Shown piece after piece: positions 10,671 to 21,518 of a stretch of DNA of 64,000 bases (positions within the stretch are counted from its first letter, which is position 1; the number at the start of each line of letters is the position of its first letter). The translations under genes and the position numbers were made by a program. Source of the DNA: Bdellovibrionota bacterium (lineage in GTDB: Bacteria; Bdellovibrionota_C; UBA2361; JAAYZI01); the NCBI GenBank assembly GCA_050950765.1, contig JBMNIF010000001.1, positions 64,001-128,000 of the forward strand, read 5' to 3'. A model generated the notes under the pieces. The model searched no databases and was not told the origin of the DNA. It worked only from the letters and a program-made list of their open reading frames with translations.

Positions 10671-11505
10671 ACACCCTTTAGGGAGATGAGAACGGGCTGC
10701 AACTTGCAGAGCGAGTTAGCTAGATCTGGACGGAGGTCAAAAATTTGGTGCCACCCATTAATTTAGGAGAGTGAAAATTTGGTGCCACCCATTAATTTAG
10801 GCAGATTTTGCAGCTTGTCACTGGTGCCACCCTTCAGTTTGGGGGTTAAAAATTTGGTGCCACCCTTCAGGGACAGCAGGACGGGCTGCAACTGCAAAAC
10901 GAATCGGTTAGGTTTTCACGAAGGTTAAAAATTTGGTGCCACCCATCAGTTAAAGGTGGGTGTCCTAATTGCTCTGCTAATAATATCAGGATGTTAGCAA
11001 AAGTTTAGAATTCGGCAGGTTTTGGTGCCACCCTTCAGTAAGACGGGTTCTGGCAGATTTGGCAGGGCTAGGATCTGGTGCCACCCACCAGTAAGACGGG
11101 TTCTGGCAGATTTGGCTGGGCTTAGATCTGGTGCCACCCTTCTTTTTTGCTGCTTTGACGGCTTAAGCGACTGGATGAATTTGGTGCCACCCTTCAGGGA
11201 CAGCAGGACGGGCTGCAACTGCAAAACGAATCGGTTAGGTTTTCACGAAGGAGGTTAAAAATTTGGTGCCACCCATCAGTTTGGGCAGATTTGGGAGCAG
11301 CAGGTTTTGGTGCCACCCTTCAGTTAAAGGTGGGTGTCCTAATTGGCAGCTAATAATATCAGTATGTTAGTAAAAGCCCTGCATTCGGCAGTTTTGGTGC
11401 CACCCACCAGTAGGACGGGATCTGCAGGGCTAGGATCTGGTGCCACCCACCAGTTTAGGCGACTTGCAGATCGGATCGGCTAGGTCTTAACGGGGGTTGA
11501 AAAAT
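10671..11505 (+). repeat. Repeat family A, array 2: mosaic of full units and 13 GGTGCCACCC cores
   Basis: GGTGCCACCC at 10747, 10781, 10823, 10856, 10935, 11024, 11077, 11130, 11183, 11265, 11309, 11396, 11439; ~10851-10950 nearly duplicated at ~11178-11280. Confidence 0.9.
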
Positions 11506-11509
11506 AGAT

Positions 11510-11546
11510 AAAAAAAGGGTGACTCAAAACTCTTTTGAATCACCCC
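11510..11546 (-). terminator. Intrinsic terminator of the candidate sRNA
   Basis: Minus strand GGGTGATTCAAAA-GAG-TTTTGAGTCACCC followed by T7. Confidence 0.85.
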
Positions 11547-11736
11547 GAAAATGAACTCTGACCTCGCTAGTTCATTGAGCTTTTGGTACCCTCGCTACTT
11601 GAACGGTTTTAGATACCAATATCTTAAGTCGTTTTCTGTCATATACCTGAGAAAGCTAGGAATGTGTGTGTGGTAAGGAGGTAGTTCCTCAGGTATTTTG
11701 ACTTCCACAACCTTGCCCTATTGCAGGGCGTTTGTT
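11510..11736 (-). ncRNA. Candidate sigma-54-dependent small RNA (~225 nt)
   Basis: Bounded by a sigma-54 promoter and an intrinsic terminator; no ORF longer than 15 codons seen; stems GCCCU/AGGGC, AAGUC/GACUU, UACCUGAG/CUCAGGUA, UUGGUAUC/GGUACCAA, AAUGAACU/AGUUCAUU; 5' end inferred from the promoter position. Confidence 0.65.
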
Positions 11737-11746
11737 TCTACTCTAA

Positions 11747-11763
11747 AGCAAGTGCTATGCCAA
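11747..11763 (-). promoter_or_regulatory. Sigma-54 (-24/-12) promoter
   Basis: Minus strand TTGGCATAGCACTTGCT = GG-N10-GC with TGGCA and TTGC. Confidence 0.8.
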
Positions 11764-11776
11764 AAAAGTGCTTTTT

Positions 11777-11789
11777 TAACTTATTGAAA
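11777..11789. promoter_or_regulatory. IHF-like site
   Basis: TAACTTATTGAAA versus YAANNNNTTGATW (1 mismatch), in AT-rich DNA between enhancer and sigma-54 promoter. Confidence 0.5.
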
Positions 11790-11852
11790 ATACTTAATTT
11801 TTAAAAAATACTCTATTAGTGCTGGGAAACTTTTGCCTTAATCTTTGACAGC

Positions 11853-11873
11853 ACTGTCGTACATAACGACAGT
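11853..11873. promoter_or_regulatory. Palindromic candidate enhancer (UAS) for a sigma-54 activator
   Basis: ACTGTCGT-acata-ACGACAGT perfect dyad, ~120-135 bp upstream of the inferred +1. Confidence 0.6.
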
Positions 11874-11892
11874 TAAGTAGGATCTTTTTGCT

Positions 11893-12378
11893 TAGTGCCA
11901 CCCTTCAGGGACAACTGAACGGGCTAGAACTGCAAAACGAGTTAGCTAGATCTTCACGGGGGTTAAAAAACTGCTGCCACCCTTCAGGGACGATCGGACG
12001 GGCTGATACTAAAGAGCGAATTAGCTAGGTCTCTACGGAGGTTAAAAATTTGGTGCCACCCTTCAGGGACGATCGGACGGGCTGATACTAAAGAGCGAAT
12101 TAGCTAGGTCTTTACGGAGGTTAAAAATTTGGTGCCATCCACTAAGGACGATCAGTGACGATCGGACGGGCTGATACTAAAGAGCAAGTTGGTTAGGTTT
12201 TGACGGAGGTCAAAAATCTTTTCCATACCTTTCAATGACGGCTGAACGGGCTAGAACTGCAAAACGAATTAGCTAGATCTCTACGGAGGTTAAAAATTTA
12301 GTGCCACCCTTCAGGGACGATCGGACGGGCTGATACTAAAGAGCAAGTTGGTTAGGTTTTGACGGAGGTCAAAAATCT
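11893..12378 (+). repeat. Repeat family A, array 3 (6 units, period 79/79/89/80/79 bp)
   Basis: ACGG(A/G)GGT anchors at 11956, 12035, 12114, 12203, 12283, 12362; unit GGTGCCACCCTTCAGGGACGATCGGACGGGCTGATACTAAAGAGCGAATTAGCTAGGTCTTTACGGAGGTTAAAAATTT. Confidence 0.93.
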
Positions 12379-12620
12379 TTTCAAGACGCTTTTTTTAAGA
12401 GAAAAATACCGAATTGTAGAAAAAATTAAAAAATAAATTATTTAAAAATAATAAATGTCATTTTATCTCAATATATAATGATCATAGGTAGCTGGAATAG
12501 TTTTCAACGGTATAATACACAAGTAATCAACAGGTTTTAAACTTTTGAGGTTGAATCTGCTTTCTGTTATAAACGTAAGGTTGTTTCTGGGTTAACAGTC
12601 TGCATTTTTAATAGTGTATT

Positions 12621-13157
12621 ATGGAAAGTGAAACCTTTCAGATTCGTGTCTCAAAACTGATTCAGAAGTGCCGTAAGGCTGTGCGCTTATACAGCTCGGT
12701 CGGTCGTCTCGCTGGGGTTAAGCAAAACGAGTTTTCAGAACTTCAAGTTGCAGAGTGGAAAGATGTTAACATTCTGCTACTACAAGGGCTTACATCAATT
12801 ATGGAGGTTCCAGGAAGAAAAGGTTTAAGCGCAGATCTGTTTGCCTTAAGAGATCGTTTTTATATGTTGTGGCGTGCTGCGGAGTCCGATATGCACATGC
12901 AACATAAAGATCTGCTGGCAGTAGTTGAAGGGAGCGATTTTATTAAAGCAGCAAAATTAAGTAGTCAGTTAATATCATTAAAAGCAAGGGTGCAAGCGAC
13001 ACAAGCCGCACACCATGAATTACAAGACCTCCTTGATAAAAGTCATCTGGTACCACCTGCTATCGAGCTATCTAAAGAGGCTATACTTTCGGAATCGGTA
13101 GAAGAAGATACCACGTCGTTGGCAAAAGTTATCCCGTTACGTCGCAGATGTATTTAA
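12621..13157 (+). CDS. Hypothetical helical protein with C-terminal KVIPLRRR tail
   Basis: 178-aa ORF with ATG start and natural composition, between two repeat arrays. Confidence 0.75.
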   Translation: MESETFQIRVSKLIQKCRKAVRLYSSVGRLAGVKQNEFSELQVAEWKDVNILLLQGLTSIMEVPGRKGLSADLFALRDRFYMLWRAAESDMHMQHKDLLAVVEGSDFIKAAKLSSQLISLKARVQATQAAHHELQDLLDKSHLVPPAIELSKEAILSESVEEDTTSLAKVIPLRRRCI

Positions 13158-16334: not shown

Positions 16335-16351
16335 TTGGCAGAGATATTGCT
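16335..16351 (+). promoter_or_regulatory. Sigma-54 (-24/-12) promoter of flgE
   Basis: TTGGCAGAGATATTGCT = GG-N10-GC, ~110 bp upstream of the flgE ATG. Confidence 0.75.
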
Positions 16352-16461
16352 TAATCAAAGAAGTAACAACGAATAAGAGCGAAAAAAGATAAAAAAGGGG
16401 CAATAAGTATCATTTAGGGCAAGATGGTAGGAAAAAATTGCTCGTTAATAATGAGGTTAGG

Positions 16462-17709
16462 ATGAGATTAGAAACAGCGTTGTCTACCAGTAGAGAGGGG
16501 ATAAATGTTCACGGACAAGCGATCGCCGTTGTCGGTGATAATATCTCTAATGCCAGCACGACGGGTTATAAAGCATCACGTGCAGAGTTCGCCGATCTTT
16601 TGGCTGATTCGGCCAACCCATCAGGAACCATAGTACACTCCGGTTGCGGCGCTACTCTGCAATGCGTGCGCACCCTCCATCAAACTGGAATTATCGAAAA
16701 CACAGGACGCAGCCTTGATCTTGCTATCGGTGGAAACGGGTTCTTCCTTGTAGGAAGTGCTGAAAGTCCGAACTTAACTAGAGCTGGTAATTTTCAGATC
16801 GGTCGAGATGGTTACTTAGAAACTGCTAGTGGCGATAAAGTGCTCGGCTTTAGTGGCGCAGACGGCACAACGCTCGGACCTATCAATATGTTGGATGTTA
16901 ATGTTACGGGTAGTCCTACGGGTAATATTAAGGTAGGAGGAAACCTTAGTAGTATGAGTGAAATTACTGCGCCACCAACAGCAGCAACCACTTTTCAAGA
17001 TATAAATAGAGCTGCTTCATTCTCATCTTCTGTTGAGATTTATGATTCTCTTGGTGGCAGACACGCTGTCTCCCTAAGCTTTTTTAAAACAGGTGATGGA
17101 GCGTGGAAAGCACAAGCTTTTGTGGATAGTGCAGAAACAGGCGGTACTGCCGGAGTGCCGCAACTTATCGGAGAGATAGATCTCGGATTTGATGAATATG
17201 GGCAGATCACAGCAGGTTCTAATGCAACTATGAACGCTAATGTTACATTTGCTGGGGCAGCAGCATCAGCTATCGCCATAGATTTTTCTGCTATGACACA
17301 GTTTGCTAATCAATCATCTATTAACAATGTCAATGCTGATGGACAAGGTGCGGGAGATATAACGGGGTATGAGATGTTGGAAGACGGTTCAATTCTAGCA
17401 CGCTTAAGCACCTCAGATGCTATTAAGGTTGGAACTATTCAACTTGGAACTGTGCAAAATATTGATGGTTTAGTGCGCGATGGTAACGGTCTTTATATGT
17501 TATCTGGAACTTCAGGAGAGTTGATTGTGGGAAGCCCCAATTCAAATTATTTTGGTTCTCTTGAAGGATCTTCTTTAGAAAATTCAACAACGGATCTAGC
17601 AACTGAATTTGTAAACTTGGTTATCTTACAACGTGGATATCAAGCTAATTCGAGTATGCTAAGTGAAGTCGGAACGTTGCTAAGAGAAACGATCTCTCTC
17701 TTACGCTAA
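16462..17709 (+). CDS. flgE: Flagellar hook protein (FlgE family)
   Basis: VVGDNISNASTTGYK, TGRSLDLAIGGNGFF, TRAGNF, IYDSLGGRH, LENSTTDLATEFVNLVILQRGYQANS; ATG 16462 with GAGG RBS. Confidence 0.9.
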   Translation: MRLETALSTSREGINVHGQAIAVVGDNISNASTTGYKASRAEFADLLADSANPSGTIVHSGCGATLQCVRTLHQTGIIENTGRSLDLAIGGNGFFLVGSAESPNLTRAGNFQIGRDGYLETASGDKVLGFSGADGTTLGPINMLDVNVTGSPTGNIKVGGNLSSMSEITAPPTAATTFQDINRAASFSSSVEIYDSLGGRHAVSLSFFKTGDGAWKAQAFVDSAETGGTAGVPQLIGEIDLGFDEYGQITAGSNATMNANVTFAGAAASAIAIDFSAMTQFANQSSINNVNADGQGAGDITGYEMLEDGSILARLSTSDAIKVGTIQLGTVQNIDGLVRDGNGLYMLSGTSGELIVGSPNSNYFGSLEGSSLENSTTDLATEFVNLVILQRGYQANSSMLSEVGTLLRETISLLR

Positions 17710-17778: not shown

Positions 17779-18150
17779 TTAACCGAGTCCTCCTTCTCCA
17801 ATAAATCCGCCTTCTCGACTATCCCACAGAAAGATTTTACCTGTACCTTTCGGGTGAGAGGCTTGCGCCTGAAAACCTTCATCATCAGCTGTAATTGAAA
17901 GCTCTACACCTGCGGAGAGCGCTGCAAAACCAGGTAGGCTTGTACAAGCTGCATTACTGCAAGCCAGATACTCTTCATTATCCATAAAATACGCCTCTTC
18001 TGCGATAGCAGCGTTATGCAAGTCGCTCAAAGCGCGAGTATCAAAGGCGCGTTGCTTATAAGAGTTGTATTGCGGTACGGAGATCGCCGTTAAAACGGAA
18101 ACGATCGTGAGAACTACTAATAATTCCAATAAGGTGAATCCATGATCCAT
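17779..18150 (-). CDS. Type IV pilin-like protein (prepilin N-terminal methylation motif)
   Basis: G|FTLLELLVVLTIVSVLTAISVPQY with Glu at +5; A.SDL.N...AEEAYF. Confidence 0.88.
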   Translation of the reverse strand: MDHGFTLLELLVVLTIVSVLTAISVPQYNSYKQRAFDTRALSDLHNAAIAEEAYFMDNEEYLACSNAACTSLPGFAALSAGVELSITADDEGFQAQASHPKGTGKIFLWDSREGGFIGEGGLG

Positions 18151-18370: not shown

Positions 18371-18652
18371 TTAGAGCTTGCTGATTACTCTTTCCATGAT
18401 ACTTGCTAAGTTTGATCTGATAATAGTTGCGAAACGTTCTTTTATTAAGGGTTGTGCTGCTTCAAAATGCTCTTTAAGCCCTGTTGTAATAGTATGGATA
18501 AGTTCGTGGTATTCTACACAGTCAATGTCAATGAAGATGCCGCTTTCTTCGTTGTAAGAACAGGGAAGTTTATTATTACAAAGAAGCCATAAAATAGATG
18601 TGTCTGAAAAACCGCTCAGCTCTTTAAATTCAGAGAGTGATATCTTTGTCAT
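18371..18652 (-). CDS. Small hypothetical protein (possible MerR/excisionase-like N-terminal HTH)
   Basis: 93 aa, ATGA overlap with the upstream activator; ISLSEFKELSGFSDTSILWLLCNNKLPC. Confidence 0.65.
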   Translation of the reverse strand: MTKISLSEFKELSGFSDTSILWLLCNNKLPCSYNEESGIFIDIDCVEYHELIHTITTGLKEHFEAAQPLIKERFATIIRSNLASIMERVISKL

Positions 18653-20190
18653 GGCTTAACCTCACTTTCTTTTGTCGCAATAATATTTGAAGCAACAAAG
18701 GTCATTAACGGAGCGTGGTCTGCGATTTTTTCTGCTGCTAAATTTAGATCTCCGCCTGTTGCTTCAAGCGCATGAGAACGCACTAATGTGGTGAACTCAG
18801 AGACACCATCTTGCAAAGATGAAATAGGTTTACTTAAGGCACGTTGTGCCAAGTCTAGGGCAGCTTCGGCTAATATTTCAGATGATGTAACGGCTTTACC
18901 GAAGAACTTTGATTCAAAAACTTTACCGACATCAGCTGCATCAATAATGGAGCTTCCCTTAAAGTCGGCCATTTCACAAAGTTTAGCGGTACTGTTTTCC
19001 AACTGTCTTAAATTTCCTGGCCAGCTATGACTGAAAAGCAAACGGTAAGCATCATTACTAATGCCGAAGATGCGTGAATTATGAGCGCGTTGTCTATGAA
19101 TTTTAGCTATGGCATAAGCTAGCCCAGCTGCAATATCTAAACGTCTTTCTCGTAACGGCGGAAGTTCAAGACTAACCCTCTCAAGGCGATAGGCGAAGTC
19201 GTGTCGTAATACATCGCAATCCATTAGATCAAAGAGCGCTTCATTTGAAGCAAAAACAAAACGAACATCGGCAGAGGTTGTCTCTGTGCTACCGACTCTA
19301 CGATAAACTTTACTCTCAATAAAAGTGATCAACTTTCCCTGTAAGGCTTTATCGATACTTTGTAATTCGTCGATAAAAAGGGTACCTTTTTCTGCACTTT
19401 TTACTAAGCCCCACTTATCAACGGCACCCGTATAGGCACCTTCAACGGCTCCGAAAAGTTCAGCTTGAATTAACTCTGATGATGAAAAGTCTCTCGGGGT
19501 AATACTGATAAACTTTCCAGATCTTCCCGCTAGAAGATGCAGAGCTAAAGCAAGATTGGTTTTACCTGTGCCTGTCTCTCCGATAATGATCGGATTTTCA
19601 TTGGTATATTTGGCGTAGCGTGGCACCCAGACCATCCACAACTCACGGCTACGTGGGTCAGCTAAAGATTGTGCCCAACCATTACTGTTTAATGTCGGGA
19701 GAGCACTTTGTCCTTCAGCGCGGCGTTGCAACTCTTCTTGACAGAAGCTAAGAGCGTTTTGTAATTGAGCGTTAAGTGGCGTAACGGAAGGAATATTTGA
19801 AGGAGGAGCTGCTATAAAAGTATCAATAAAGCTTGAACCGTGCAGAGTTTCATCTTCAAAAAGAAGGTCTCCGCCGTATCCAAGATGTGCAGGAGACAAT
19901 AGAGCTGTAATGATAAAGATCTCGGATCCGTAACGTTCTCGCACTTGAGATAAAAAGTGTCTTGTCCAACTATGCACGGACTCCGAATAGTGCGTGCCTA
20001 TCTCCAGTAATATAACATTCGGTCTATGACTTGAAAGTAATTCCCAAGCGCCACTAAATGAAGCACTAAAACTTTTTTCAGCTAACCTAGCGGTTGTGAT
20101 ATAAGAGTCCATTTTACGACAAAAATCGCTGCTGCCTAAGATAGCGATGTGTAATCGAGGAGTGTCTTTCCCGCTAGTTTGGGTATTCAT
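18649..20190 (-). CDS. Sigma-54 enhancer-binding protein with intact AAA+ module, degenerate receiver-like N-terminus and degenerate HTH
   Basis: GETGTGKT, AELFGAVEGAYTGA, GTLFIDE, RHDFAYRL, LPPLRER, WPGNLRQL. Confidence 0.88.
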   Translation of the reverse strand: MNTQTSGKDTPRLHIAILGSSDFCRKMDSYITTARLAEKSFSASFSGAWELLSSHRPNVILLEIGTHYSESVHSWTRHFLSQVRERYGSEIFIITALLSPAHLGYGGDLLFEDETLHGSSFIDTFIAAPPSNIPSVTPLNAQLQNALSFCQEELQRRAEGQSALPTLNSNGWAQSLADPRSRELWMVWVPRYAKYTNENPIIIGETGTGKTNLALALHLLAGRSGKFISITPRDFSSSELIQAELFGAVEGAYTGAVDKWGLVKSAEKGTLFIDELQSIDKALQGKLITFIESKVYRRVGSTETTSADVRFVFASNEALFDLMDCDVLRHDFAYRLERVSLELPPLRERRLDIAAGLAYAIAKIHRQRAHNSRIFGISNDAYRLLFSHSWPGNLRQLENSTAKLCEMADFKGSSIIDAADVGKVFESKFFGKAVTSSEILAEAALDLAQRALSKPISSLQDGVSEFTTLVRSHALEATGGDLNLAAEKIADHAPLMTFVASNIIATKESEVKP

Positions 20191-21518
20191 AATGCAACCT
20201 CCCTCCTCTGTTTTTGATCTACGTTGTGAGTGTTATGGGAAGAGGAAGACAAAACTTTACGAAGAGCTGTCACAGAACAGCCGAGACGTGCTGCTGCAAT
20301 GCGGTAGTTAAAGTTACACTGCTCTAAGATGCGAAAAGCTGTGGCAACGTTAAGCATATTATTATCTTCCGAAGTACAGTTTTGAAGAGACCACATCTCT
20401 CTACCGTTTTCTATCAATTCTTGTAATGAAAAATCTGTGTTTGCGTTACAGAGTGCTGCATCAAAGAGCACTTCTTTTAGCTCTTTTATCTCCCCCGCCC
20501 AAGTTAGTGTTGATAGCCAAGAGTAGATCTCTTCAGAGAAAAGAAGGGTGGGTTTTCTTCTATTTTGCGGAATTTTTTGTAGAAAGTATTGTGCTAGGAG
20601 GGGAATATCTTCTGTTCTTTCTGAAAGACTTGGGATCCTTATATGGCTTGCTCCTGTTAATCTTAGCCACGCTTTGGAAAGTTCAGCCGATTGAGTACAG
20701 ATAAAAAGGAAGGAATCATTTGTTGAAGAATTAGCACTCCAGATCCGCGAATGGTTTTTACTGATGAAATCAAGTACATCACACTCATCTTCTGTACAAT
20801 TTGTAAGTATTAATGAAAGATTTTTACCGAGAGATGCTCTTGAAGTATCATCATAATGACGAGTTCCGAAAAGCGTTTCAAGATCGCCATCATAAAGGCT
20901 AATATCTACTGTTTTTAAATGTGATTTTGAATCTTTGCTATTAAAAATTATGGAAGCGATGGTCTTTTTGCCCACACCTGCCGCACCTTCCAGCACTAAA
21001 ATAGGAGAGCTCTTCATGCTTTGAGATCTAATCTGATCTAGTAATTTCAAGTGTGGTTTTGAAACGCCGACCAGATCAGCTAATGTCTCCTGTTGTGGAG
21101 GCTCTTGCTTGATAAATGATTTTGTAGAAAGCGCTTGTGCAGCCAGATCTACAACACTTCTTATGGCTTGTATGTGTCCGATCTCAATATAATCTAAAGC
21201 TCCAAGCTTTAGAGCTTGTACTGCAACTGAGATACTAGGTTCATCAGTAAGGAAGATCACAGTCGGCATCTCTTCTTTGCCGTAATGATCCAGCAGCGCT
21301 TGCATAATGTCCAGCCCAGTGGAGTAGTCGCCGATCAAGTAGTCTAAGATAAGTACACGCGCATTACGTTCCAACAAGATCGGAATAATATCTTTACCGA
21401 TCGGAATTCGAAACGAGGTTATATTTTTTTGAGAAAACTCTTCCTGTAAAGCTGCGGCAACCTTAAATTTTGTCGGCTCTCTTTCATTTAGAACAATATT
21501 AATCGGTTCCTGCATCAT
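20187..21518 (-). CDS. NtrC-like protein: atypical receiver, degenerate AAA+ domain, Fis-type HTH
   Basis: ILDY and AVQALKLGALDYI (receiver); GAAGVGKKTIA; no GAFTGA or Walker B; IPSLSERTEDIPLLAQYFL; WAGEIKEL; NYRIAAARLGCSVTALRK. Confidence 0.8.
   Translation of the reverse strand: MMQEPINIVLNEREPTKFKVAAALQEEFSQKNITSFRIPIGKDIIPILLERNARVLILDYLIGDYSTGLDIMQALLDHYGKEEMPTVIFLTDEPSISVAVQALKLGALDYIEIGHIQAIRSVVDLAAQALSTKSFIKQEPPQQETLADLVGVSKPHLKLLDQIRSQSMKSSPILVLEGAAGVGKKTIASIIFNSKDSKSHLKTVDISLYDGDLETLFGTRHYDDTSRASLGKNLSLILTNCTEDECDVLDFISKNHSRIWSANSSTNDSFLFICTQSAELSKAWLRLTGASHIRIPSLSERTEDIPLLAQYFLQKIPQNRRKPTLLFSEEIYSWLSTLTWAGEIKELKEVLFDAALCNANTDFSLQELIENGREMWSLQNCTSEDNNMLNVATAFRILEQCNFNYRIAAARLGCSVTALRKVLSSSSHNTHNVDQKQRREVAL

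Follow-up and report, generated by a model that had tools for sequence, protein, structure and literature searches.

What is encoded by the island of unique sequence around positions 11510 to 11873 of a 64,000-nucleotide stretch of a Bdellovibrionota bacterium genome (contig JBMNIF010000001.1, positions 64,001 to 128,000; hereafter the window), and what might its product do? A sequence-only reading of the window had proposed an unannotated gene for a new regulatory RNA, read from a sigma-54 promoter, ending at an intrinsic terminator, and possibly controlled, along with flgE, by a pair of activators encoded at 18.6-21.5 kb. Having compared the locus with related genomes and metagenomes, we consider it very probably a real sigma-54-dependent RNA gene that is stand-alone and non-coding, as judged from sequence comparison. 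A broader explanation, in which a flagellar regulator activates this gene and its RNA pairs with flagellin messages, has in our estimation slightly better than even chances, and the RNA is probably part of the flagellar regulon. All window coordinates are those of the 64-kb stretch, and elements of the RNA gene lie on the minus strand unless stated otherwise; G, L, C and f numbers are our handles for genomes (G000 being the window's own), loci, contigs and families of the order, respectively.

A predicted RNA gene with its own promoter and terminator

The dyad, the site resembling one for IHF (integration host factor), the promoter, the unique stretch of ~225 nt and the terminator described in the sequence-only reading were all recovered at their places on the minus strand. 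The putative sigma-54 promoter TTGGCATAGCACTTGCT (11747-11763), with its -24 GG and -12 GC, is the only strict match in the window, and its core, TGGCATAGCACTTGCT at 11762-11747, fits the TGGCAC-N5-TTGCW consensus with exact spacing. For the pattern TGGCAY-N5-TTGCW, the 64-kb stretch has a single occurrence where 0.15 would be expected (14 of 100 shuffles had one or more), and the whole 2.64-Mb genome has seven. Transcription would start 12 nt downstream of the -12 GC, near 11736, and end with the T-run of the terminator, giving a predicted small RNA of 227 nt (11510-11736). The predicted fold has a free energy of -69.3 kcal/mol (z = -4.3), and none of 200 shuffles was equally stable. The necessary sigma factor, RpoN, is encoded in the genome (PF04552, 206.9 bits, at C2:349810), together with about nine enhancer-binding proteins (nine strong PF00158 matches).

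The 380-nt stretch that holds the gene is single-copy in the genome and sits between two arrays of ~79-nt repeats (10672-11503 and 11889-12393), an island just as previously described. At gathering thresholds, none of 4227 Rfam models matched anywhere in the window; the sequence-only reading, too, had been unable to match the RNA to a family. The sole match at E<=10 over 11200-12200 was to L10_leader (E=1.3, 19.4 bits against a threshold of 44), and the matched part is the terminator. Four sequencing runs were uninformative on expression at the locus: three metatranscriptomes were blank, and the one contig obtained (154 nt, 11771-11900) is probably DNA.

Homologues and distribution of the family

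Against 40 relatives, BLAST gave a single match, exact over 22 nt, in the sole other genome of the window's family; the locus there is a full homologue, in which TTGGCACGCCGATTGCTT, a 5' hairpin and a long hairpin bearing the same loop are accompanied by AGCGAGGU and a terminator. We then built a covariance model on nothing but the window RNA (11738-11508, the promoter being left out). With it, homologues came to light in G001, G015 and G026, which represent three further families of the order, and in each of them TGGCAY-N5-TTGC lies immediately upstream. The model also matched C2:633006-633170 (31.8 bits), which we rejected as a second copy, as it has neither the loop motif nor a promoter and resembles a terminator match.

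Pattern scans extended the family. Across the phylum, 16 of 124 genomes matched, all within the window's order, with no match to a reversed-pattern control; the match in G065 is doubtful. Eight loci came from a collection of 185,579 species genomes, all eight with family features, and seven of their titles name Bdellovibrionales, Bdellovibrionota or 'Deltaproteobacteria', the eighth only 'bacterium'. The metagenome scan gave 11 loci, of which six are real and five are false positives (L027, L029/L030/L033, which are one sequence, and L035). A loop-only pattern, from which the promoter was left out, matched 13 genomes, and its control matched three. Ten of the 13, among them the newly recognized G002, are real members, and each of these has the promoter at a distance of 60-100 nt upstream. 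The G065 match (L053) and the matches of the loop-only pattern in G053, G079 and G028, with no further family feature in any of them, were treated as chance.

The homologue search thus yielded 21 distinct sequences, 16 in genomes of the window's order and five more in metagenome contigs. Carriers make up 16 of the 91 species genomes of the order and fall in seven of its 21 families, with none among 33 genomes of other orders; the largest genus of the order has no carrier apart from the doubtful G065. The promoter is found in 21/21 members, always as TTGCT, the final T not being required by the pattern. With homologues that keep promoter, compensatory hairpins, loop and terminator, the proposal of a new small RNA gene of the sigma-54 type is borne out, and the window RNA would be the founding member of a family that, within these searches, appears confined to one order of Bdellovibrionota. 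In family f13, G047 has a weak model match (L014) that contains AGUAGCGAGGUCAG and has neither loop motif nor promoter, and G013, a non-carrier by patterns, has a flagellin -10 element followed by a GU repeat (L139, G013:C41); a divergent relative of the RNA in this family is possible.

RNA architecture and coding potential

The predicted RNA opens with a 5' hairpin, SL1 (11715-11729, GCCCUG-CAA-UAGGGC), in which five of the six pairs of helix 1 are changed on both sides among four sequences. Next comes a long hairpin, P2 (11626-11713), which was delimited by folds and stem complementarity and carries a G-free apical loop, AACUACCUCCUUACCACACACACAUUCCUAGCUU (11653-11686), the most conserved part of the family. 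Within this loop lie CCUCCUU, an anti-Shine-Dalgarno core (11681-11675), and a CA box, ACCACACACACAU (11674-11662). Folding places two further hairpins downstream, the variable SL3 (11584-11619), with a first GCGAGG at 11595-11590, and SL4 (11552-11576), with an 8-bp stem, the loop AGCGAGGUCAG and a second GCGAGG at 11567-11562. The transcript would end in a Rho-independent terminator (11510-11546) with a fold of 14 pairs including G-U, a 3-nt loop and U7. A terminator is present in 19/21 members, that is, in all 19 complete copies, the other two being cut by contig ends.

In all 21 members, the long hairpin presents at its apex a G-poor loop element, CCUCCU..ACC..CACACACAU, and CCUCCU-N4-10-CACACACA was apical and unpaired in 14/14 folds. 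The window's loop segment ACCUCCUU is identical to the 3' end of the 16S rRNA of its own genome. The stems of the long hairpin, as compared between members, vary freely in sequence yet remain complementary: in 14 sequences, stems paired with themselves at 7.43 of 8 positions versus 3.89 of 8 across sequences, and the loop-closing helices average 8.6 bp versus 3.7 bp with shuffled flanks. In the four closest sequences, 88.5% of cells are paired and 36 of 63 pairs are changed on both sides, in an alignment that was fitted to the model, which favours structure; none of 500 shuffles reaches that pairing, and slid controls stay at 35-48%. These pair counts come from the four-sequence alignment (A7) and a script, the MAFFT alignment of the loop hairpins (A5) and the model alignment of 65 hits (A6) having been unusable for this purpose.

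Could such a transcript be a message instead? The 15-codon open reading frame (ORF) MTENDLRYWYLKPFK, which the sequence-only reading had flagged, does exist, with an ATG start at RNA positions 95-142, and under a small-protein explanation it would be the product of the gene. No properly spaced Shine-Dalgarno sequence accompanies it, however, and no ORF is conserved among the 21 members: this one is private to the window, peptides elsewhere are unrelated, and L043, L028, L074 and L042 have no ATG ORF of at least eight codons at all (L028 and L042 are cut by contig ends). Translation of the ORF finds no support, and we judge a small-protein mRNA most improbable. As an observation apart, in the f8 RNAs of G037 and G026 (L040/L041, ~206-250) a GCGAGGUAAAAA(A/U)AUG loop opens a 10-codon ORF, MHSSCLSELA, which is missing in the f8 relatives L039, L032 and L038.

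A second way to read the element is as a cis-acting 5' leader or attenuator of a downstream minus-strand gene. This finds some encouragement in G015, where the longest downstream ORF (NAGPA-like, 285 aa) begins ~10 nt past the terminator, and in G001, where a homologous gene follows ~157 nt past it. Against this, what lies downstream varies from genome to genome: in the window it is ~900 nt of repeats followed by a 76-aa ORF and YaeQ, and in G026 it is RNase E/G at a distance of ~330 nt. Moreover, every complete copy closes with a strong terminator and its U-tract, and no conserved antiterminator pairing was found. The differing downstream genes, together with the lack of any conserved ORF, argue against a leader and for an independent RNA gene, and we give the leader explanation very little chance. 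The NAGPA-like gene that follows the RNA gene in G001 and G015 seems to have been displaced by the repeats in the window.

The GCGAGG motifs invite a different mechanism, that of a protein or ribosome decoy, in which GCGAGG(U/A)A loops and the CA-rich loop titrate an RNA-binding protein or 30S subunits. One or two copies of GCGAGG are present in 17/19 complete RNAs, with ~0.05 expected per RNA, often at the 5' side of a hairpin loop, with stems of 8-9 bp in the window, L043, L040, L039 and L031; CsrA, moreover, is encoded in the genome. But the motif lacks the GGA core that we take to mark CsrA sites, and its hairpin context is no better than in shuffles (mean stem 5.3 versus 4.6 bp; at least 5 bp in 12/24 versus 45%). 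One or two copies per RNA are also unlike known sponges, and no candidate protein was found. On balance we regard a decoy as quite unlikely. Intramolecular pairing of GCGAGG with CCUCC was considered and rejected, as a C-C mismatch is always left and, by inspection, there is no covariation.

The upstream palindrome and a candidate flagellar activator

Upstream of the promoter lies an A/T-centred palindrome, GGCAAAAGTTTCC(C) (11824-11837, GGCAAAAGTTTCC itself spanning 11837-11825), which is conserved and constitutes the candidate enhancer. In its general form, GG[ACG]A[AT]-N3-6-[AT]T[CGT]CC, it lies 55-130 bp upstream of TGGCA. Perfect palindromes were present in 9/20 upstream regions, versus 0.8% of shuffles and 1/20 transcribed controls, and at least nine of ten arm positions were matched in 19/20 versus 20% of shuffles, the motif having been defined on the same sequences in which it was counted. 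The perfect dyad that had previously been singled out as the enhancer, ACTGTCGT-N5-ACGACAGT (11873-11853), which overlaps GACAGTGCTGTC (11858-11847) in a set of TGTC/GACA repeats (11847-11873), does not hold this place in the family: TGTC-N8-11-GACA occurs in 2/20 upstream regions, and GACA-N2-3-TGTC is kept by no members other than the window, L049 and L028, which are each other's closest relatives. Between palindrome and promoter, the IHF-like site TTTCAATAAGTTA (11777-11789) matches 12 of 13 positions of WATCAANNNNTTR, which we take to be the IHF consensus, when read from 11789 to 11777. Elsewhere in the family, CAA-N4-TTR lies 16-26 nt upstream of TGGCA in 6/21 members versus 3% of shuffles, and the full IHF consensus is present in L028 and L051.

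In the window's genome, two of 62 palindromes stand beside strict sigma-54 promoters, where ~0.07 would be expected, and these two belong to the RNA gene and to flgK. In five other carriers flgK likewise has a sigma-54-type promoter followed by the palindrome 25-40 nt downstream; the flgK palindrome is perfect in G000, G001, G005, G008 and G026 and reaches 9/10 in G015. An element common to the RNA gene and flgK suggests a flagellar activator. Members of the AT-rich family f8 carry the RNA, and their true enhancer-binding proteins number only three. Two of these match the products of a single locus that also encodes a kinase, namely a 367-aa protein that lacks a receiver domain and a 470-aa response regulator; the third matches a separate 454-aa regulator. 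In the window's genome the three conserved proteins are encoded at C2:444411-445823, C2:447649-448752 and C2:809272-810636; the 367-aa/kinase/470-aa locus is FlrA-like/kinase/regulator in type. We infer that a flagellar regulator of the FlrC/FleR/FlbD type activates the RNA gene. Activation through the palindrome by the flagellar regulator of flgK, with the RNA in the hook-stage flagellar class, seems to us rather more probable than the contrary.

The activators to which control had tentatively been ascribed are a pair of AAA+ regulators (18649-21518, minus strand) beside a minor pilin gene (17779-18150). The 513-aa member has a partial sigma-54 interaction domain; the 443-aa member has a receiver and an AAA-lid, with no sigma-54 interaction domain detectable. 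Of the order's 90 other genomes, 27 have an orthologue of the 513-aa protein; six of the 15 other carriers lack one, and 18 non-carriers have one. Since these orthologues do not co-occur with the RNA, this part of the proposal found no support, and the proteins at 18.6-21.5 kb probably do not activate the RNA gene. Its other part, co-regulation with flgE or other hook genes, is compatible with the flgE promoter and with the palindrome at flgK. The flgE gene (16438-17709, plus strand) has a near-consensus sigma-54 promoter, TGGCAGAGATATTGCT (TGGCAG-N5-TTGCT, 16336-16351), and an imperfect A/T-centred dyad, GGCAG-N9-TTGCA, lies ~80 nt upstream. Elsewhere in the genome, at C2:541915, a sigma-54 promoter (TGGCATCCGAATTGCT) lies ~250 nt upstream of a type IV pilin gene (pilA). 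Ahead of it the palindrome GCGACATTTTTTGTC stands twice in direct orientation, probably as a PilR-type enhancer. A PilR-type activator of the RNA gene itself was considered, given some likeness of this palindrome to the TGTC/GACA repeats of the window, and set aside.

Complementarity between the loop and flagellin leaders

Hfq was not found in the genome, which is 94% complete, and no full-length complement of the loop was present within three mismatches apart from the gene itself. Flagellin genes were examined because the enhancer looked flagellar. In 6/6 carriers examined, one flagellin gene per genome has a sigma-28-like -10 element (GCCGTTA, GCCGTAA or GCCGTAC, called with what we take to be the sigma-28 consensus), followed after 20-27 nt by a GU box that is complementary to the CA part of the loop. 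The flagellins concerned are of the class MA[IV]T[IL]G[ST]NI..SL. The longest contiguous helix between loop and box measures 13 nt in both G026 (UGUGUGCGGUAAG) and G005 (GUGUGUGUGUGGU), 11 nt in G001 (GGAUGUGUGUG), 10 nt in G000 (UGUGUGGUAA), 9 + 5 nt in G015 (AUGUGUGUGCGGUAG) and 7 + 6 nt in G002 (GCUGAU-AG-GUGUGUG); another flagellin gene of G000 reaches 11 nt. Cognate duplexes between loop and leader have energies of -20.5 to -30 kcal/mol, versus -13.9 +/- 4.6 for shuffled leaders. A regular expression for a -10 element, 10-40 nt and a GU repeat matched five of 28 flagellin genes, one in each of five carriers, and one of 25 flagellin genes in four non-carriers.

The same messages offer a second complement. 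The flagellins with a GU box use the ribosome site UUCAAGGAGG, which is complementary to the loop. In the genome of the window, TCAAGGAGG occurs 19 times, and the only copies in the position of a ribosome site stand before two flagellin genes; TCAAGGAGG is complementary over 10 nt to CCUCCUUGAA in many family members. Taken together, flagellin mRNA is a plausible target of the loop, a claim that we put a little short of even.

The following sequence of events would account for these observations. The gene would be transcribed from its sigma-54 promoter and end at the intrinsic terminator, giving an RNA with a 5' hairpin, a long hairpin with a ~30-nt G-poor loop, one or two U(A/U)GCGAGG(U/A)A hairpins and the terminator. 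Activation would proceed from GGnAA-N3-6-TTnCC through a flagellar enhancer-binding protein that also serves the flgK promoter, for which the candidates are the 470-aa response regulator (C2:444411-445823) or its 367-aa neighbour. The loop would then act by Hfq-independent pairing with the mRNA of a sigma-28-type flagellin, the CA box (UUACCACACACACAU) with the GU box close to the 5' terminus of the long flagellin leader and CCUCCUU(GAA) with the ribosome site UUCAAGGAGG, so that translation or stability of flagellin would be coupled to hook-stage transcription, in either direction. A more daring version, which we hold to be possible and no better than doubtful, is a two-site clamp, in which the loop would grip the 5' GU box and the distant UUCAAGGAGG site at once and loop out ~130-230 nt of leader. 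The RNA, made with the hook-stage genes from a flgK-type enhancer, would in that version let hook assembly gate flagellin translation, and the GCGAGG loops, which resemble Shine-Dalgarno sequences, would be an internal competitor or ribosome decoy that tunes the clamp. Such a clamp would constitute a previously undescribed flagellar checkpoint.

Several points weigh against the model of a flagellar RNA that pairs with flagellin messages, beyond the circularity of the palindrome counts given above. At its base, transcription, the ends of the RNA and its dependence on sigma-54 are all inferred from sequence, and the activator is known as candidates only. The flagellin link was found after the fact, and the GU box is placed inside the flagellin transcript by way of the sigma-28 consensus. 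A similar flagellin box is present in the non-carrier G013. For the subgroup to which the window belongs, complementarity with the ribosome site comes down to the generic 7-nt CCUCCUU. Sites of the form UGUGUG..GGAG are not enriched in the genome (14, versus 21 and 18 in controls). Loop helices of at least 10 nt occur upstream of 4.9% of the 1828 ORFs in the window's genome, and against this background two of seven flagellins amount to only about p = 0.04. Cognate pairs are not significantly better than non-cognate ones, since 54 of 720 assignments were as good; the pairing thus rests on the shared CA/GU core and not on lineage-specific covariation. The site of G015 fits a G026-type loop better than its own: the GU box in its flagellin leader (L111, G015:C25) forms a contiguous helix of 20 nt with the loop of a G026-type RNA versus 9 + 5 nt with its own RNA. 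The G015 GU box may be older than the present loop sequence of G015.

The rival that we rank next is a sigma-54-dependent base-pairing RNA with targets other than flagellin, whose anti-Shine-Dalgarno loop would repress other mRNAs with a strong AAGGAGG. It draws on the fact that CCUCCU is the invariant core of the loop and that 35 ORFs in the genome have an AAGGAGG ribosome site. At start regions, the best single match, about third in rank out of 8534 candidate starts, belongs to a lineage-specific 112-aa ORF (C2:1031253), whose 5' region (C2:1031190-1031253) pairs with the loop over 12 + 7 bp (UGUGUGUGGUAA..GAGGUAG). We rejected this ORF as a target, as its protein has no Pfam match and no homologue in five other, related genomes, three of which carry the RNA. 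Neither the start regions of four FlgM-like genes nor the neighbouring genes are complementary to the loop. In addition, the CA box is as conserved as CCUCCU and needs a partner of its own, and the only conserved complement found for it is the flagellin GU box. Other targets in place of flagellin therefore strike us as unlikely, somewhat less so than a decoy.

Neighbouring gene and flanking repeats

A divergent gene for a 178-aa protein, family unassigned (12621-13157, plus strand), is the neighbour that is kept in the closest subgroup. Neighbours in G001 and G015 are 45-50% identical, and the gene is kept beside the RNA gene in three genera. The protein has no Pfam or NCBIfam match; no Shine-Dalgarno sequence precedes its ATG, and its translation start region is not complementary to the RNA loop.

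Each unit of the ~79-nt repeats contains a GGTGCCACCC..GGGTGGCACC hairpin, and units are found also at C1:254461, C2:453662 and C2:1183733-1183885 and on C4 and C5. They hold TGGCACCAAATTCGCT, a mimic of the sigma-54 -24/-12 pair and the source of most loose promoter matches. The repeats look like an element of the repetitive extragenic palindrome (REP) type or the miniature inverted-repeat transposable element (MITE) type.

Comparison with known systems

In its predicted structure, the window RNA has the features of a trans-acting base-pairing RNA: a structured body, a seed that is both conserved and single-stranded, and an intrinsic terminator. Its proposed action is most like that of CJnc230 (FlmE) of Campylobacter jejuni, an RpoN-dependent small RNA of the flagellar hierarchy (PMC11187230). 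In the lineage of FlmE, the same source indicates, such RNAs repress flagellar mRNAs through a single-stranded anti-Shine-Dalgarno motif; FlmE itself has 98 nt, lies downstream of flgE, is processed from the flgE mRNA and targets flgM and a flagella-interaction regulator (PMC11187230). The window RNA, in contrast, would be ~227 nt long, with its own promoter and a candidate enhancer, 4.7 kb from flgE and on the opposite strand. Its candidate target is flagellin, FlgM starts are not complementary to it, and there is no sequence similarity between the two RNAs. By analogy, then, it may work most like FlmE and would not be a member of its type.

Pxr of Myxococcus xanthus, which controls development, is a multi-stem-loop RNA for which a sigma-54 promoter has been predicted, with an enhancer region ahead of it, and pxr lies directly downstream of the NtrC-like regulator gene pxrR (PMC5684412). 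The window RNA resembles it in its several stem-loops, its sigma-54 promoter, its upstream element and its origin in a former deltaproteobacterium. Unlike the case of Pxr, no enhancer-binding protein gene adjoins the window RNA, and there is no Rfam match.

GlmY acts by protein mimicry, and the structure and proposed mechanism of the window RNA differ from this. GlmY and GlmZ are sigma-54-dependent, their activator GlrR binding TGTC(N)10GACA (PMC4987338). The dyad in the window is TGTC-N9-GACA and not N10, it is not conserved in the family, and the RNA has no Rfam match to them.

The Qrr RNAs are Hfq-dependent, ~100 nt long, multicopy and encoded beside luxO. In Vibrio, these trans-acting RNAs depend on sigma-54 and an activator and repress translation (bioRxiv 10.1101/2021.07.01.450815). 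The window RNA, by comparison, is single-copy, its genome has no Hfq that we could find, and it has no Rfam match to Qrr.

Flagellar enhancers of Caulobacter can reportedly lie downstream of the sigma-54 promoter, to go by the titles of Mullin & Newton 1993 and Gober & Shapiro 1992. The order of promoter and then palindrome at flgK mirrors this arrangement, a likeness of layout. We know of no small RNA that is driven by the Caulobacter ftr/FlbD or Vibrio FlrC systems. Sigma-54 flagellar promoters in such systems have IHF sites (PMC3096577).

Implications for Bdellovibrio-like bacteria

A literature search found no sigma-54-dependent small RNA described in Bdellovibrio or Bdellovibrionota. The RNA is of a kind already known, that of sigma-54-dependent small RNAs, and its family, from predatory-type Bdellovibrionales, is new. 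Bdellovibrio-like predators alternate between a flagellated attack form and a growth form and, to our knowledge, almost nothing is known of RNA regulators in them. The alignment of the family is suited to an Rfam entry, and the promoter, the palindrome, the seed loop and the flagellin GU box and ribosome site are concrete sites for further work. If the proposed model is true, the hook tier of flagellar assembly (sigma-54) and its filament tier (sigma-28) would be linked by a conserved RNA, in a lineage with no Hfq that we could find. Next to FlmE of Campylobacter, the RNA would make a second case, independent and with a different target.

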